The notes under the pieces were generated by a model, which was given only the letters and a program-made list of their open reading frames with translations, did no database searches and was not told where the DNA came from. Shown here piece by piece: positions 1-31,479 of a stretch of DNA of 31,479 bases. Position numbers and translations under genes: made by a program. How positions within the stretch are numbered: the stretch's first letter is position 1; each line of letters begins with the position of its first letter. The DNA comes from a virus (lineage: Duplodnaviria; Heunggongvirae; Uroviricota; Caudoviricetes): IMG/VR virus record IMGVR_UViG_2547132280_000007; one strand, given 5' to 3'.

Positions 1-642
1 TTAATCGGACGCTTTTAAATTTTTATTTTTCCCTGCAGAAAAATTAGCTTTCCCGCTGTTTTGCAACTCAACAAGAGGAGATAACCGTCGGTAAACAGCC
101 AAAAGTATCTTTAACTGAACCAGTTCATCTGCCCCCGATAGTTGAACCAAGTTTTTACGTTGTTCTTCACTAAGTGCCATCACAGATTCAAGTGATTTAA
201 CTGCGTCAGAAACAAGTTCAATCTCTTTAATTTGATTCTGTATACGCAGCTTCTCTGATTTCAACTTTGCCCATTCTCTTTGTCGATATGTACGCATCAC
301 CTGATCGTAAACTTTGTTGGCAGCCAGAATACTTCCACCAACAGCAGTAACTAACTCAGCAATCTGCCAAGAGATATCAATAAGAGCAGACAATTCAATA
401 AAGCCAGGAGAGGCATACTGAATTTTTTTCACTACAGGACGTAAATCTGGTGGAGTCGCACTGTAAGCCCCTCTAAAAAAGTTCACTACACTGTGCCCAC
501 CCTCCCAAGGCATTGTTGAATATCCTCTTGATCCTCCTTTTAGGCCATAAAAAAAACCATATAGCTGCAAATACTCTTTCGTTAAGACCGCGAAATCAGC
601 TAACTCCCAACGATTATCAAGCTCAATTATAACTTTTTCCAT
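1..642 (-). CDS. hypothetical protein, 213 aa, AT-rich; moron or flanking gene of unknown function
   Basis: Complete ORF (ATG at 642, stop at 1-3) with GGTGG about 6 nt upstream of the ATG. Roughly 38% GC against about 52% for the phage backbone. No motif recognised; C-terminal half looks coiled-coil-like (heptad-rich, K/E/Q/L). Confidence 0.5.
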   Translation of the reverse strand: MEKVIIELDNRWELADFAVLTKEYLQLYGFFYGLKGGSRGYSTMPWEGGHSVVNFFRGAYSATPPDLRPVVKKIQYASPGFIELSALIDISWQIAELVTAVGGSILAANKVYDQVMRTYRQREWAKLKSEKLRIQNQIKEIELVSDAVKSLESVMALSEEQRKNLVQLSGADELVQLKILLAVYRRLSPLVELQNSGKANFSAGKNKNLKASD

Positions 643-22063: not shown

Positions 22064-22205
22064 ACACCCCGTCATCACGCCCTCACACGCTCACCACCGC
22101 ACAAAACACCCCGTAGACACACCAACGCCCCGGCGCACAATCTAAACGCCATCAAGACGCGCTCAGACGCTGAAAAAATAAAATCAGCACCACCGCCAGC
22201 GCGCA

Positions 22206-22224
22206 GTGCTTTCCCCGCCTCGCC
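22206..22224. other. cos: cos cohesive-end site (19 nt)
   Basis: gtgctttccccgcctcgcc is the reverse complement of GGCGAGGCGGGGAAAGCAC, which I recall as the P2 19-nt cohesive end. It lies about 170 bp past the Q stop, the expected position. Confidence 0.6.
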
Positions 22225-22299
22225 CGCCCGCTTCATGGGGCGGTTTTAATGCAGTTGCATGAGTACGTTGGAACCGCACTGGTGCTGACGATACCCAAT

Positions 22300-22320
22300 C
22301 AAACCTTGCTGTATAATTAC
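22300..22320 (+). promoter_or_regulatory. candidate sigma70 promoter for the cargo operon
   Basis: TG immediately followed by a perfect TATAAT (22310-22317), about 130 nt upstream of the cargo gene start; the -35 element is weak. Confidence 0.3.
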
Positions 22321-22450
22321 TTGCGAATTCACGCACATCAACGCGAATCTTACATCATGAATAATTCATTTATGGCTACAGAATGAGTATATTGCATGTT
22401 ATGAAATAACTTTGTGCTCCTTCTCGTGGACATGTTCAACGGAGATCCAG

Positions 22451-23572
22451 ATGATTGCTGATTCAGAAATACTTTATGTTCCGCTAGATGATTTGGAACT
22501 TGACACAGAAAACCCAAGACTTCCTGAAGGCGTGTCTCGTGACCAATTGGGAATGATTAACTACATAGCAACCTCAACATCTATCGAAGACTTAATGAGT
22601 GCTATTGCGGAAAATGGTTTTTTCCCTGGAGAACCATTGATTGTCATTCCTGATAGTGGAGCGCCGGGGAAGTACATTGTAGTTGAAGGAAACCGTCGCC
22701 TATCCGCGGTCAAATTATTACGCGATCCGACACTATGTGAAAATCCAAGTGCTCGACTACGAGAAATTGCATCAAATGCAAAACATACGGTCGATCGTGT
22801 TCCTGTCATTGAGCGCCAAACAAGAGAAGAGATTCTTCCGTACCTTGGTTTCAGACATATTACTGGTGTCAAACAATGGGAACCCTTATCAAAAGCTCGA
22901 TATATTAAACAGCTTTTTGATTATACCAATGCAAATCTGGATCCAATGCTACGCTACTATGAGGTTGCCAGAGCTATTGGCAGTCGTAGGGATCATATCA
23001 AGCGTAACCTAGACGCTTTAGCGGTGTATGAAATCATTAAAAAAAATGATTTTTATGGTATTGAAAAGCTAGATGAAGAAACGATTAAATTTTCAGTATT
23101 ATCAACAGCACTTGCTGATGAGCGGTTAGGCCAGTTTGTCGGAGTTTCAATCGAAGACGATGGAGACACAATACCAAGTCATCCTATCATCAATTCTAAG
23201 AGTTTAAAGAACAAAGAAATAAAAGAACTAACTGAATGGTTATATAAAAAAGGCGAGGATAAAAAAACTCGTGTAGGAGAATCACGTAATTTAAGAGAAC
23301 TAGCTGCTGTTGTAAGTAGCCCTAAGGCATTGGAGCAATTCCGAATGGGGGCTCCACTCGCAGTTGCCTATCAATTGACATCTGATATTACTAAGGACTT
23401 TCTCCAGTTACTTTATCAAGTTGAAGCAGCTTTGATAGATGCAGCAGGCATGGTTGCCACGGTAGAGTATGATAGACAGGCCCATGAAGTAGCACGAAGA
23501 ATCAATAAACATATTAAGCTTATAGGTTCTGAAATAGCAGAGAAAAATAGCAGAGGTGATGATGACTTTTGA
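22451..23572 (+). CDS. ParB/Srx-like N-terminal domain protein, 373 aa (cargo gene 1)
   Basis: Start at ATG 22451 with GGAG 6-7 nt upstream. The N-terminal 150 aa follow the ParB N-domain pattern: LDDLELDTENPR, IVVEGNRRLSAVKLL (GxRR box), VPVIER. AT-rich. Confidence 0.7.
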   Translation: MIADSEILYVPLDDLELDTENPRLPEGVSRDQLGMINYIATSTSIEDLMSAIAENGFFPGEPLIVIPDSGAPGKYIVVEGNRRLSAVKLLRDPTLCENPSARLREIASNAKHTVDRVPVIERQTREEILPYLGFRHITGVKQWEPLSKARYIKQLFDYTNANLDPMLRYYEVARAIGSRRDHIKRNLDALAVYEIIKKNDFYGIEKLDEETIKFSVLSTALADERLGQFVGVSIEDDGDTIPSHPIINSKSLKNKEIKELTEWLYKKGEDKKTRVGESRNLRELAAVVSSPKALEQFRMGAPLAVAYQLTSDITKDFLQLLYQVEAALIDAAGMVATVEYDRQAHEVARRINKHIKLIGSEIAEKNSRGDDDF

Positions 23573-24551
23573 AGTAGGAGTTATGCATCCCAACTCTCCT
23601 CATTTGTTTGCAGATTTAGCCGAGTTACTCACGGTAATTAATTATACCGGACGTAACTCACTACATAAAAATGATTTAGATTCAGTAAGAAAATTCGGCA
23701 TAACAAGCGTTGAAGAAATTGATGAAGAATGTAATTCTGAAGAAGAAATTAATGGAGACGCTGAGAGAAATGATCGTTTTGAAGAGCAACTCGAAGATGT
23801 TTGGACACAACTCGAATATAGAGAAAGTGCTCTTGGAAAAATATATCCATTTATAATTTCAGGTGATGAGATAATTATTAAAGAAAATCTAAACCAACAA
23901 CAACGAATATATGTTTTTCTTCTTTGCTGCTCTAGACTTAGATCCTTTAAGTCGATTAAAGGAGCAGCACAACGTTGGGCAAAGAGCTTTGCCAGAGTAT
24001 GTAAAGTAGCAATGATTTCTCTCTTACCTGCACATGGCACCGTAAGAATTTTTGATGCTAACTCCGATGATAGGCAAAATTATTATGGAACAAATCTTCG
24101 GACAGCTCTACAAACTTTAGGAAAAGATCTTGGAGTTTGTAGTTTAAACACAAGGGAAATAAATAGAGCTCCCACATCTGGTGATGCCGGGTTTGACCTA
24201 ATTGCTACAGTGGAATTTCCTGATGGTCAAACTAGCAACTATGGAATTCTTGGTCAATGTGGTGCACAAGAAACAGGGTGGCCAAGCAAAACATTAGAGG
24301 CTAACGTGTTAAAACTGACCACCTATTTCCAAATTGCGTTCCAGCATCCATCAACAATGTTCACGCCTGTTTTCTATCGGGAAGCAAATGGCGAATGGGT
24401 AAGCACACACGCAACCGCTGGGGTATTATTATTAGATAGGTTGAGAATCATATATCTACTTGATAAGGCAAACCAATGGGAAGCGATAACTACCTCTGAT
24501 TGGTTTCGCGAATTTGAGGAAGAGCTTTATACATTAAATCCAGAGCCTTAA
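23562..24551 (+). CDS. hypothetical protein, about 329 aa, translationally coupled to gene 1 (cargo gene 2); possible nuclease or effector
   Basis: Overlaps the gene 1 stop by 11 nt. Start is uncertain (GTG 23556, ATG 23559/23562 or ATG 23583); AGAGG lies 5 nt before ATG 23562. No confident motif seen. Confidence 0.6.
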   Translation: MTFEVGVMHPNSPHLFADLAELLTVINYTGRNSLHKNDLDSVRKFGITSVEEIDEECNSEEEINGDAERNDRFEEQLEDVWTQLEYRESALGKIYPFIISGDEIIIKENLNQQQRIYVFLLCCSRLRSFKSIKGAAQRWAKSFARVCKVAMISLLPAHGTVRIFDANSDDRQNYYGTNLRTALQTLGKDLGVCSLNTREINRAPTSGDAGFDLIATVEFPDGQTSNYGILGQCGAQETGWPSKTLEANVLKLTTYFQIAFQHPSTMFTPVFYREANGEWVSTHATAGVLLLDRLRIIYLLDKANQWEAITTSDWFREFEEELYTLNPEP

Positions 24552-24558
24552 TAGCTTA

Positions 24559-25503
24559 TCAATCCCATAATTCTATTGGCAATGCCTTCGTTACAGCTTC
24601 AAAAAGCGGCGGAGGCACTGCATTACCAACCACCGTGTATTTCATGCCAAGACTTGCAGCATTTGTTTCTGGAAACACTAGATCCTCAAACCCTTGTAAT
24701 AGTGCTGCCTCTCGAAAACTGAATCTGCGAGCTCTCCGATCCTCAACAAATCTCCATTCATCAGTTCTTACTTTCTCCATCGGAGGACTGACAGGATGCA
24801 ACGGCATATGCCTTGCATTAGCAACTATTGTCTTTGAAATTTGATCCCAATCCTGGCGACGATTGCGAGACATATAATACCAATGGAATCCCATATCATA
24901 AAATTCACCTTCTGGCCATTCAGGTAAATGCCCTATAGCATCTTTAATAGTAACATAGTTGACGCCAGTTGCTGGCCCATGAGTTGGCTGAGGGAACTCG
25001 TACTTAACTTTGAAATCATTACGGATTCCTACGATAAATATTCTTTTTCTTTCCTGCGCTACTCCATATTCAGCCGCATTTAAAACTTTTGCGGAAACAG
25101 TATAACCTGCTTCAGTAAAAACCCTGATCTGGTCAGATAACAAATGCTCAAAATTTTTTCTAACCATACCAGACACGTTTTCTACTATAAAAGCTTTAGG
25201 CTTTATATTGTTTAAAGCTCTAGCAAACTCTAAATAAAGAGTATTAATTTTTCGATCGGCTTTACGCGCACCACCCTGGCTGAATCCCTGACATGGATAA
25301 CAACCTACCAGCAAATCAGATTTAGGAAAAGTAGTTACATCAGCAATATTGCCTAATATGTAATCAGTTTCTGGATGATTGGCAATATAAACATCGCGCG
25401 CATACGGCAAGATATCGTTGGCCATAAGCACATCAAAGCCGGCTCTCAAAACCCCCGCATCGGAACCACCGCATCCAGAAAAAAGTGAAACTACTGTTGG
25501 CAT
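24559..25503 (-). CDS. DNA (cytosine-5)-methyltransferase, 314 aa
   Basis: C5-MTase motifs in canonical order: I SLFSGCGG, IV GCYPCQGFS (catalytic Pro-Cys), VI FIVENV, VIII QERKRIFIVG, X VVGNAVPP. Strong SD (GGAGGGGATA) before the ATG. Confidence 0.85.
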   Translation of the reverse strand: MPTVVSLFSGCGGSDAGVLRAGFDVLMANDILPYARDVYIANHPETDYILGNIADVTTFPKSDLLVGCYPCQGFSQGGARKADRKINTLYLEFARALNNIKPKAFIVENVSGMVRKNFEHLLSDQIRVFTEAGYTVSAKVLNAAEYGVAQERKRIFIVGIRNDFKVKYEFPQPTHGPATGVNYVTIKDAIGHLPEWPEGEFYDMGFHWYYMSRNRRQDWDQISKTIVANARHMPLHPVSPPMEKVRTDEWRFVEDRRARRFSFREAALLQGFEDLVFPETNAASLGMKYTVVGNAVPPPLFEAVTKALPIELWD

Positions 25504-25704
25504 TATCCCCTCCTAAAACCGACCGCGTATTATAGCGAAAGCCTCCGTATATAGAAGCAGGTTTTGAACAAGATTATGTTCTCACTTTTTAACAACTGTG
25601 GCCATAAAAAATTAGCTCAATATGAAAAACAGATTAATTCATTGTTTTTCATAGAAAAATTCCACAAACACTATAACATTCCCACAACACTGCAGTAGTA
25701 GTCA

Positions 25705-29557: not shown

Positions 29558-29724
29558 TTCCATACCCTCCGGCTTTTCAGAAAGGTCAGAGCCTTCTTTA
29601 ACGGACTCTGTTTTTTGGTGCGGATAATGATTCCCTTGCGCCCCTTCCCGTGGGTGATGGTGAAGTCAATCGCCCTGGGGCTTTCGTTACGCAGTAACTG
29701 AGCAATACAACGCGGCTCATTCAT
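29554..29724 (-). CDS. small ORF between cox and B (P2 orf78-position)
   Basis: Start MNEPRC... at ATG 29724 (GGATGGGG upstream); its stop overlaps the B start. Small and basic; weak evidence. Confidence 0.4.
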   Translation of the reverse strand: MNEPRCIAQLLRNESPRAIDFTITHGKGRKGIIIRTKKQSPLKKALTFLKSRRVWK

Positions 29725-29726
29725 AA

Positions 29727-30014
29727 TCACAACCCCATCCACAAGAGCCATGCATCACGCTGTTCAACCGGTCGGTTATAAAACGCCTCACGTACAGCGC
29801 GATTAAACTCAGGAATGAAAACCCATTTTTCACCGGCACGAGCCTTCGGTTTGCAAGGATCACGCAATTCAATAATTGGTAATTTATTTGCTTTCACCAT
29901 TTCACTGACGGCTGTCTTTGGCTTCCCTAATAAATCAGCAAATTTATCCACATGAACCGCATCAAGCGGATACTGAATCACATAATTTTCAGCGTCCATA
30001 TATGGTACCCTCAT
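29727..30014 (-). CDS. cox: Cox-like excisionase / early-promoter repressor, 95 aa
   Basis: First gene of the leftward early operon, divergent from C. ...RDPCKPKARAGEKWVFIPEFN...WLLWMGL parallels the P2 Cox pattern as recalled, but is clearly diverged. Confidence 0.7.
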   Translation of the reverse strand: MRVPYMDAENYVIQYPLDAVHVDKFADLLGKPKTAVSEMVKANKLPIIELRDPCKPKARAGEKWVFIPEFNRAVREAFYNRPVEQRDAWLLWMGL

Positions 30015-30076
30015 AGGATCCAGCCCTTTCTAAACCACTCAAAACCGTTTAGACGCTGGTTTATTCTCAAATCAAT

Positions 30077-30094
30077 GGAACCTATATAGGTTCC
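30077..30094. promoter_or_regulatory. 18-bp perfect palindrome GGAACCTATATAGGTTCC; candidate operator
   Basis: Read directly from the sequence. Confidence 0.55.
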
Positions 30095-30114
30095 AGTTTT
30101 GAGGGAATTTAGTC

Positions 30115-30124
30115 CCTATATAGG
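30115..30124. promoter_or_regulatory. second CCTATATAGG copy, 34 bp downstream of the first; candidate operator
   Basis: Direct repeat of the 10-bp palindromic core, ending 11 bp before the C start. Confidence 0.5.
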
Positions 30125-30135
30125 CACCATGTCAA

Positions 30136-30429
30136 ATGAAATTAAGCGAAAAGATTAAGGCCTTGCGTGAGGCTGAAGGGCTAAGCCAATCAAAATTCTG
30201 TGAAATCATAGAGTTACCGCTAAGCACACTTAAAAAATATGAAGGAGGAAACTTTGAACCCGGTGGCACAGCTTTGCTAAAAATCACTATGCATCCCACA
30301 TTCCAAAAATATGCTCTATGGCTTATGACAGATAAAACCGCGCCGGACGCAGGACAAATCGCACCGGCTCTCGCGCACATTGGGCCAGAGTCAACAGAGT
30401 CCAACCACTCCGCGAAAAGGATTGGCTAA
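30136..30429 (+). CDS. C: immunity repressor C, 97 aa
   Basis: The C-terminal ...YALWLMTDKTAPDAGQIAPALAHIG... resembles the P2 C repressor as recalled; divergently oriented to cox. Confidence 0.75.
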   Translation: MKLSEKIKALREAEGLSQSKFCEIIELPLSTLKKYEGGNFEPGGTALLKITMHPTFQKYALWLMTDKTAPDAGQIAPALAHIGPESTESNHSAKRIG

Positions 30430-30498
30430 CTCTATATAAAGATTACATTTTCACCATTTGCTACCAAGATGGTGAATACAGCGCCGGAGGGCTTTCTT

Positions 30499-31479
30499 AT
30501 GGCAATTAAGAAGCTCGATGATGGTCGCTATGAAGTGGACATTAGACCTCGCGGTCGCGACGGAAAACGCATCCGCAGGAAATTCGAAAGAAAAGCTGAA
30601 GCACTAGCATTTGAGCGATACACAATCGCCAATGCCAGTCAGAAAGAATGGGGAGGCCAGCGAGCAGACCGCCGAACTTTGAGTGAGTTGCTGGACATCT
30701 GGTGGAAATATCACGGGCAAAACCACGAGCATGGAACAAAAGAGTTTAATCATCTACTCAAAACCATCAGCGGCATAGGTGATATACCAGTGAGCCGGAT
30801 GAGCAAAAGGGCTTTGATGGATTATCGTTCCATGCGACTACGTGATGGTATCAGTGCCGCAACGATAAACCGTGACATGTACCGATTATCCGGCATGTTC
30901 ACAAAATTAATTCAATTGGATGAATTTTCCGGGCAACACCCAATTCACGGACTGCCGCCACTGGCGGAGGCCAACCCTGAAATGACGTTCCTGGAAAAAG
31001 CAGAAATCGCAAAACTGTTAAATGTTTTGGCTGGTGATGACTTACTTGTCGCGCTTTTATGTCTGAGCACTGGAGGAAGATGGACGGAAGTTGCCACGCT
31101 AAAACCAGCACAGATTACAAATTGCAGGGTTACCTTCCTGAAAACCAAAAACGGTAAAAAGCGAACCGTGCCGATTTCTGAGGAACTGGAGAAAAAAGTT
31201 AAAGAGGAGGCCAGCGCCAAATTATTCAAAGTTGATTATGAGAAATTTTGCGGGATTTTACGCAGAGTGAAACCTGATATACCACCCAATCAGGCAACCC
31301 ACATCCTGCGGCATACATTCGCAAGCCATTTCATGATGAATGGGGGCAATATAATCGCACTGCAACAGATTCTGGGACATGCGAGCATTCAGCAGACGAT
31401 GGCCTATGCGCACCTTGCGCCTGACTACCTGCAAAATGCCGTCGCTCTGAATCCACTAAAAGGCGGAGTGACGTTATAA
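30499..31479 (+). CDS. int: tyrosine integrase, 326 aa
   Basis: Start MAIKKLDDGRYEVDIRP... (GGAGGG 7 nt upstream); C-terminal catalytic motifs HILRHTFASHF and GHASIQQTMAYAHL (Tyr). The stop is the last codon of the window. Confidence 0.9.
   Translation: MAIKKLDDGRYEVDIRPRGRDGKRIRRKFERKAEALAFERYTIANASQKEWGGQRADRRTLSELLDIWWKYHGQNHEHGTKEFNHLLKTISGIGDIPVSRMSKRALMDYRSMRLRDGISAATINRDMYRLSGMFTKLIQLDEFSGQHPIHGLPPLAEANPEMTFLEKAEIAKLLNVLAGDDLLVALLCLSTGGRWTEVATLKPAQITNCRVTFLKTKNGKKRTVPISEELEKKVKEEASAKLFKVDYEKFCGILRRVKPDIPPNQATHILRHTFASHFMMNGGNIIALQQILGHASIQQTMAYAHLAPDYLQNAVALNPLKGGVTL

Follow-up and report, generated by a model that had tools for sequence, protein, structure and literature searches.

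The immunity repressors (C proteins) of P2-family phages bind two repeated half-sites, and by 2007 the operators of P2, P2 Hy dis, and WPhi were the only ones located (PMC1904268). These half-sites measure 8 bp and lie 22 bp apart in P2, 8 bp and 26 bp apart in P2 Hy dis, and 10 bp and 34 bp apart in WPhi; those of P2 and WPhi flank the -10 element of the promoter Pe. In these two phages, a mutation in a single half-site keeps repression, while a double mutation relieves it (PMC1904268). The paradigm for the family is one of nonpalindromic direct repeats (i.e., asymmetric half-sites that are read by a symmetric dimer), and C.Esp1396I, a restriction-modification regulator, has been cited as a structural relative of P2 C (PMC2995052).

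Predicted lysis-lysogeny switch

We analyzed a 31,479-bp stretch of DNA, here called the window, in which cox and C are divergent genes and int lies downstream of C in the lysogenic operon (Table 1). The gene order is that of L-413C, P2, and WPhi, and we identify the region, as judged from its genes, as the C/Cox lysis-lysogeny switch of a P2-like prophage. C was aligned over residues 3 to 97 with the "C protein" structures of P2 (PDB 2XCJ/2L49; E=1.9e-21) and keeps the GQIAPALAH motif and the C-terminal dimerization region of P2 C. Cox would be the putative Pc repressor and excisionase.

The longest cox ORF (29727-30014, minus strand) starts at an upstream ATG at 30014, beyond the ATG at 29999. 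The true start is probably the ATG at 29999, which gives a protein beginning with MDAENYVIQ (cf. MEVNDYVIQ of WPhi Cox), and this 273-nt version is annotated in most database records of the L-413C-type class described below. With this start, the cox-C spacer extends from 30000 to 30135 (136 nt). The interval 30015-30135, which had been given as the switch by an earlier reading of the DNA (referred to here as the sequence-only reading), is what separates the C ATG from the longest cox ORF.

C and Cox are recognizable but diverged from the P2 proteins (42 to 43% and 41% identity, respectively), as had been claimed on that occasion, and the operator sequence is also a different one. For Cox, the divergence is from P2 only, since Cox is close to that of WPhi (82% identity) and is 88% identical to that of P37. 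Class specificity is thus confined to C and the operator.

Table 1 Features of the predicted switch and of a low-GC island in the window
Feature	Position	Strand	Remarks
PD-Lambda-5_A-like protein	22412-23572		E=7e-29
ORF without family	23556-24551		
C-5 cytosine DNA methyltransferase	24559-25503	minus	PF00145, E=5.5e-65
cox	29727-29999	minus	90 aa, 273 nt; Pfam PF10743 Phage_Cox, E=1e-23
Third CC(W6)GG palindrome, CCATATATGG	29996-30005		Across cox start codon; invariant in 11 class members
Inverted pair TCTAAAC/GTTTAGA	30029-30035/30047-30053		Candidate Cox-binding and Pc region; cox-proximal half of spacer
Extended inverted repeat (predicted leader hairpin)	30063-30108	minus	5' end of predicted Pe transcript; encloses O2 at top
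O2, promoter-distal candidate C operator site	30077-30094		Core CCTATATAGG at 30081-30090; center at ~+15 of Pe; same position as WPhi O2
Pe -10, TAAATT	30106-30111	minus	Promoter scan; alternative register, CTAAAT (30112..30107)
O1, promoter-proximal candidate C operator site	30112-30127		Core CCTATATAGG at 30115-30124; same position as WPhi O1
Pe -35, TTGACA	30130-30135	minus	Promoter scan; directly abuts C start codon
C immunity repressor gene	30136-30429	plus	97 aa; Pfam HTH_3, helix-turn-helix
int (tyrosine integrase)	30499-31479	plus	Pfam Int_N, E=2.7e-28; Phage_integrase, E=3.6e-19

Two palindromic repeats in the cox-C spacer

The 10-mer CCTATATAGG is present in exactly two copies in the window, at the cores of the candidate sites O2 and O1 (Table 1). 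The copies are separated by 34 bp from start to start (24 bp between them). Both the pair between the divergent cox and C genes and the extension of the first copy to a perfect 18-bp palindrome (GGAACCTATATAGGTTCC) had been noticed by the sequence-only reading, and we confirmed them. Each copy is a perfect 10-bp palindrome. GGAACCTATATAGGTTCC is the sole perfect 18-bp palindrome in the window and also its sole perfect 14-bp palindrome, and the second copy lies inside a 16-bp near-palindrome.

By chance, 0.23 matches to CCTATATAGG with at most one mismatch were expected in the window. There was no excess of distal copies with up to two mismatches over the whole window (3 extra matches versus ~6 expected). 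Direct 10-mer repeats at most 60 bp apart were observed five times in the whole window (1.9 expected from shuffles), and the number expected inside the 136-nt spacer was ~0.006. These expectations, together with the perfect palindromy of both copies, led us to reject a chance origin of the repeats.

The third palindrome, CCATATATGG, is specific to the L-413C-type class and is absent from WPhi and P37. It may be a third C site, a weak one, or belong to Pc.

Comparison with mapped operators

On the Pe strand, the window reads TTGACA-TGGTG-CCTATATAGG-GAC-TAAATT-CCCTCAAAACTGGAA-CCTATATAGG (i.e., gaps of 5, 3, and 15 nt). The corresponding strand of WPhi, taken from its record and a published oligonucleotide, reads TTGACA-GTAACC-TATTGGTGAC-TTATAT-TCCCGTCAAAAGGTTGTG-TATTGGTGAC; O1 and O2 of WPhi are two copies of GTCACCAATA (TATTGGTGAC on the Pe strand), 34 bp apart. 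Our locus thus shares with WPhi (class III; PMC1904263, PMC1904268) the 10-bp repeats, the 34-bp spacing, the location of O1 between the -35 and -10 elements of Pe and of O2 just past the start, the TTGACA abutting the C ATG, the leader motif TCCC(G)TCAAAA, and a similar Cox. It differs in that the half-site is a perfect palindrome, whereas GTCACCAATA is asymmetric, and in that the C proteins are only 56% identical, with the recognition helix LGTVKNYESGH in WPhi and LSTLKKYEGGN here.

With P2 (class I; 2XCJ, PMC2995052), the locus has in common the protein family and two repeats that flank the Pe -10 element, and it would also have the face-to-face promoters of the P2 switch. In contrast to those of the window, the half-sites of P2 are 8 bp long, nonpalindromic (ATCTAAAC), and 22 bp apart. 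The variable positions of P2 C that contact bases (Tyr31, Ser35, Tyr36, and Arg41; PMC2995052) align with Leu, Lys, Lys, and Asn, with three of the four replaced.

On the basis of the gene identities, of this layout, and of the comparisons described below, we consider that the two copies of CCTATATAGG are very probably the operator sites O1 and O2 of the C immunity repressor in a P2-type C/Cox switch (probability, roughly 0.85).

The paradigm of asymmetric half-sites fails at this locus, where both 10-mers are palindromic and are set in a perfect 18-bp palindrome (O2) and a 16-bp near-palindrome (O1). Palindromes are also found in related classes (TCCTATATAGGA and GCCTATATAGGC), and 12-bp palindromes occur in sister classes. 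The two C sites (GTCATTAA...) of the P37-type classes (P37, locus L004; L088, L110, L121, and L128) are inverted rather than direct around the Pe -10 element, and GGTTC-N-GAACC arms are present in each site of other classes (L114 and L123). Partial dyad symmetry of the individual sites seems to be widespread in the family.

Promoters Pe and Pc

The promoter scan produced a single match, TTGACA-18-TAAATT (minus strand; 10/12), at a position homologous to the annotated Pe of WPhi. Its -10 element aligns with that of WPhi Pe (TTATAT/TATATT) and is followed by the shared leader motif. The arrangement TGTCAA-ATG, which sets the Pe -35 element against the C ATG, is also found in WPhi, P2, and nearly all relatives. 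Given this Pe, the whole of its promoter spacer is taken up by O1, and O2 is located at ~+10 to +20.

The sequence-only reading had suggested that the TATA core of each repeat could overlap a -10 element. Taken further, this would mean that the cores themselves are the -10 elements of Pe and/or the convergent Pc and that the repetition reflects promoter architecture. TATATA is indeed contained in each repeat, TTTATT (30060-30065) and TATATA (30083-30088) are arranged 17 nt apart like a weak plus-strand promoter, and no Pc was found elsewhere by the promoter scan. However, the -10 element of the sole scan match lies between the repeats, TATATA does not have the invariant final T of a -10 element, the repeats of related classes at the same positions do not contain TATA (GTCACCAATA and ATGGTAGAGAT), and the mutations of the lytic variants described below affect the outer C/G bases rather than the TATA core. 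We therefore regard promoter architecture as a very unlikely explanation of the repeats. As for the suggested overlap, it probably does not apply to Pe, given the scan and the homology to WPhi, but the downstream repeat could possibly overlap a weak -10 element of Pc.

No plus-strand promoter (Pc) passed the promoter scan. Two hand-picked candidates, TTTATT-17-TATATA and ATCACA-18-TATGGT (near the cox start), were weak and not conserved and were discarded. Homology to WPhi would place the start of Pc near 30016, at a distance of ~82 nt from that of Pe. On the cox side, however, this spacer has 16 nt fewer than that of WPhi, and the mapped -35 element of WPhi Pc consequently has no counterpart.

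In the corresponding part of WPhi, Cox recognizes a 12-nt repeat that includes TTCTAGG (PMC5009727). The inverted pair TCTAAAC/GTTTAGA would, by analogy, be a candidate Cox operator occupying the place of these repeats; the counterparts in P37, arranged likewise, are CTTAAA(A)AC and GTTTAAG. TCTAAAC also matches seven of the eight bases of the P2 C half-site ATCTAAAC, which is probably a coincidence.

The substitution 30106 A>G, which is common among prophages, alters the final base of TAAATT and was present in three (L134, L135, and L138) of five Escherichia coli genomes sampled toward the low-identity end of the ranking. This would mean either that CTAAAT, one base over, is the real -10 element or that Pe is weakened in many resident prophages.

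Covariation of the repeats with C

We compared 80 IMG/VR loci encoding C relatives, which were reduced to ~45 distinct combinations of switch sequences. Among these ~45 relatives, and with shared ancestry ignored, the presence of an ATAGG-type motif at O1/O2 correlated with the identity of C residues 1 to 45 (Spearman, 0.65; p=1.5e-6), and it did not correlate with Cox identity (Spearman, 0.26; p=0.09). In the nearest C classes, the core ATATAGG is found where the window has its repeats, at ~-55 and -21 relative to the C ATG. Two classes whose C proteins are 85% and 72% identical have ACATATAGGTTCCA twice, 33 bp apart; their recognition helices (PLSTLKKYETGN and SLSTLKKYETGN) are identical or nearly identical to that of the window (PLSTLKKYEGGN). 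The class with a 75% identical C has CCTATATAGG and CCTAAATAGG, 32 bp apart, and that with a 69% identical C has TCCTATATAGGA and TCCTAAATAGGA, also 32 bp apart.

These results also bear on the identity of the binding protein. The Cox proteins of the family bind repeated sequences in the Pe-Pc region (PMC5009727), and the repeats could in principle be sites for Cox, or for a host factor such as IHF, instead of C. Against this, loci with Cox proteins 82 to 89% identical to that of the window (WPhi, P37, SW3, L083, and L132) have wholly different repeats there, the repeats being unrelated even where Cox is 88 to 89% identical. In locus L079, conversely, Cox is unrelated or undetected, and the ATAGG motif is kept. 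The Cox sites of WPhi are located on the cox-proximal side, and, as read from the sequence, no IHF consensus overlaps the repeats. The covariation pattern led us to reject Cox as the binder, and a reading with either Cox or a host factor in place of C appears highly improbable. The motif tracks the helix-turn-helix region of C, not Cox, which points to C as the predicted binder.

Immunity class and distribution

Phages that belong to one immunity class are expected to share at least 95% C identity (PMC3448106). C of the window matched the gpC protein of L-413C, a Yersinia phage (AY251033/NC_004745), at 100% identity, and the spacer is also alignable within the class. The 771-nt cox-C segment was 99.2 to 99.7% identical to those of at least seven named phages. 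The class members include L-413C, R18C, Salmonella phage FSL SP-004, Peduovirus P24B2, vB_YpM_50, P2_AC1, and the T22 prophage; the records KC618326 and NC_041848, labeled "Escherichia phage P2," correspond to this P2-like prophage of strain T22 and not to canonical P2. The spacer of the window differs from that of L-413C at three positions and from those of most members at none. We therefore assign the window, by sequence, to the L-413C-type immunity class. It belongs neither to class I with P2 nor to class III with WPhi, to judge from the C identities given above and from the operators (ATCTAAAC and GTCACCAATA, respectively, versus CCTATATAGG).

A 171-nt segment containing the spacer was detected at 95% identity or more in 420 of 5,426 complete E. 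coli genomes (~8%), always on the chromosome, and also in 36 IMG/VR contigs. Together with the C and switch matches, these numbers indicate a common immunity type that has already been sequenced. The distinct immunity specificity proposed by the sequence-only reading thus stands with respect to P2 and WPhi (C identity below 95%) but is not new, as L-413C, R18C, FSL SP-004, and P24B2 are of the same type. The rest of the genome differs from the L-413C class as a mosaic (best match, 97.5% identity over 91% of the query).

Seven immunity classes were reportedly distinguished by Karlsson et al. in 2006, and the L-413C genome is said to have been described by Garcia et al. in 2008. In the literature covered by our search, no mapped operator and no binding or repression experiment was found for the L-413C-type class.

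Natural variants of the switch

The variant comparison drew on 11 records of phages, 36 contigs from IMG/VR, and 5 prophage variants sampled from E. coli. In the 11 phage records, the spacer was invariant except at the neutral site 30054 and for private changes of L-413C and R18C. Because the spacer is nearly invariant within the class, conservation of the repeats is by itself uninformative.

The window carries the majority (presumably wild-type) operator, whereas L-413C and R18C have point substitutions in or next to the 10-mers. In L-413C (locus L002), the flank of the O2 palindrome is affected by 30078 G>T, the Pe -10 element by 30107 A>G, and the last base of O1 by 30124 G>T. In R18C (locus L012), 30090 G>A alters the last base of O2 and 30116 C>A alters the second base of O1; the 771 nt contain no other difference. 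The C proteins of both phages are wild type. Within the compared set, substitutions in the 10-mers were confined to these two lytic isolates; none of the 15 private substitutions of the other members was inside a 10-mer (Fisher p=0.015; binomial p=3e-4). Phage HQ103, isolated on Yersinia pestis EV76-CN, has instead a 7-bp frameshift deletion in C. The repeats were intact in 34 of the 36 IMG/VR contigs; the remaining two are R18C itself and a contig that has lost the Pe -10 element through a deletion. The five sampled E. coli prophage variants differed at 30054 and 30106 only.

R18C has been described as virulent (R18C paper); the same paper reports no lysogeny or immunity test and does not comment on the switch. 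Changes at both sites in L-413C and R18C fit the published observation that repression is relieved only when neither half-site is left intact (PMC1904268), and, like the covariation, they point indirectly to C as the predicted binder. It is plausible, on correlative sequence evidence, that the operator changes in these two phages are vir-like and cause their clear-plaque or virulent behavior.

A predicted hairpin around O2

O2 is enclosed by an extended inverted repeat with outer stems CTCAAA/TTTGAG and inner stems GGAACCTAT/ATAGGTTCC. The Pe-strand RNA was predicted to fold with -16.4 kcal/mol (z = -4.7). A hairpin was predicted at the same place, with other stem sequences, in most of 49 distinct relatives (mean z = -2.6). 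In an alignment of 30 sequences, compensatory changes were present in eight of nine consensus pairs, 85.9% of the cells were paired (71.3% in shuffles), and the covariation score was 0.369 (0.144 in shuffles; 0 of 500 shuffles as high). The structure also scored above all slid controls. A scan of 29600-30600 against Rfam (E<=1) returned nothing, and no mention of a stem-loop at the switch was found in the searched P2/WPhi switch papers. A homologous hairpin occurs in nearly all C classes (loci L054 to L133), with class-specific stems.

This covariation is compatible with RNA structure and with DNA dyad symmetry alike. Some of the symmetry of the O2 palindrome could stem from the conserved hairpin and not from C. 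The WPhi literature contains an unexplained ~100-fold rise of a Pe reporter (Pe-cat) when the phage flanks (including all sequence downstream of O2, and Pc) were replaced by vector sequence; this effect is compatible with a negative leader element and equally with the loss of convergent transcription.

If the palindromes were nucleic-acid structures only (i.e., a leader hairpin, attenuator, or terminator between face-to-face promoters), no protein would need to bind them. The stable fold, the family-wide hairpin at O2 with its compensatory changes, the WPhi reporter effect, and a terminator-like minus-strand match (a stem of 8 bp and, after it, TTGATTTG) are all in line with such a role. The identical 10-mer O1, however, is part of the promoter spacer; as this is upstream of the transcription start, an RNA hairpin could have no effect there, and a hairpin does not need an exact 10-mer duplication at WPhi-like spacing. 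Moreover, the O2 change of R18C leaves a G-U pair in the stem and is nevertheless accompanied by a change in O1, and other classes do not conserve the U-tract that follows the stem. An intrinsic terminator as the sole role of the 18-bp palindrome was discarded, because O1 is not transcribed from Pe and because of this lack of conservation of the U-tract. Structure without protein binding is thus very unlikely to account for the repeats, and the hairpin is more readily viewed as a further layer added at O2 than as a replacement for an operator.

Proposed mechanism and significance

With O1 and O2 as C operator sites, the switch would work as follows. In a lysogen, C dimers would occupy O1 and O2, about three helical turns apart, and would bend the DNA in the manner of WPhi C and P2 C. 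Binding of RNA polymerase to Pe and its escape would both be blocked, and cox, B, and A would consequently be silent. When C is low, Pe would fire, and Cox would shut the convergent lysogenic promoter Pc. Both sites would be required, as in WPhi and P2. Because each site is a perfect palindrome, one C dimer would most likely be bound symmetrically per site. O2 would additionally form the top of the leader hairpin of the early transcript, kept across the family.

A more specific version is that every half-site constitutes a full site with dyad symmetry, which a single C dimer reads symmetrically, with two dimers about three helical turns apart cooperating to close Pe in the L-413C class and a few sister classes and with O2 built into the covarying leader hairpin, which possibly adds control at the level of RNA or of convergent transcription. 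We put this version forward tentatively and hold it somewhat less probable than not. C.Esp1396I would be an analogous case, as a helix-turn-helix dimer sits on each of two directly repeated palindromic sites and a tetramer is formed (PMC2995052). It is an unrelated system, with a center-to-center spacing of 15 bp versus 34 bp here, and the likeness is one of mechanism only. If symmetric reading is true, the class would be a natural system for how symmetric P2-family C dimers read "direct repeats," and the asymmetric repeats of P2 and WPhi would be suggested to be degenerate palindromic sites.

As far as can be told from these comparisons, the switch is an ordinary member of a known and very common immunity class, and its operator layout copies that of WPhi. 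As a standard, already sequenced P2-family immunity region, it changes little. What may be new are the perfectly palindromic half-sites and the covarying hairpin that encloses the downstream site across the family. The former bear on the acknowledged puzzle of a symmetric C dimer reading direct repeats, and the latter bears on the flank effect on WPhi Pe. The data also provide a specific, testable operator assignment for a class present in ~8% of complete E. coli genomes, and the lytic behavior of the plague-diagnostic phage L-413C and of R18C could readily be explained by their point changes at the two operator sites.

Other features of the window

A low-GC island (0.37 to 0.46) extends from 22100 to 25600 between Q (the portal gene) and A (a replication gene), i.e., at the "TO" hotspot of P2, and is probably anti-phage defense or restriction-modification cargo (Table 1). 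At the ogr-side prophage end, a low-GC (0.42) ORF of 213 aa (1-642, minus strand) matches PD-T4-10_B defense models (E=1e-34) and covers only the C-terminal two thirds of the longest PD-T4-10_B profile; it may be a second defense moron or a truncated one.
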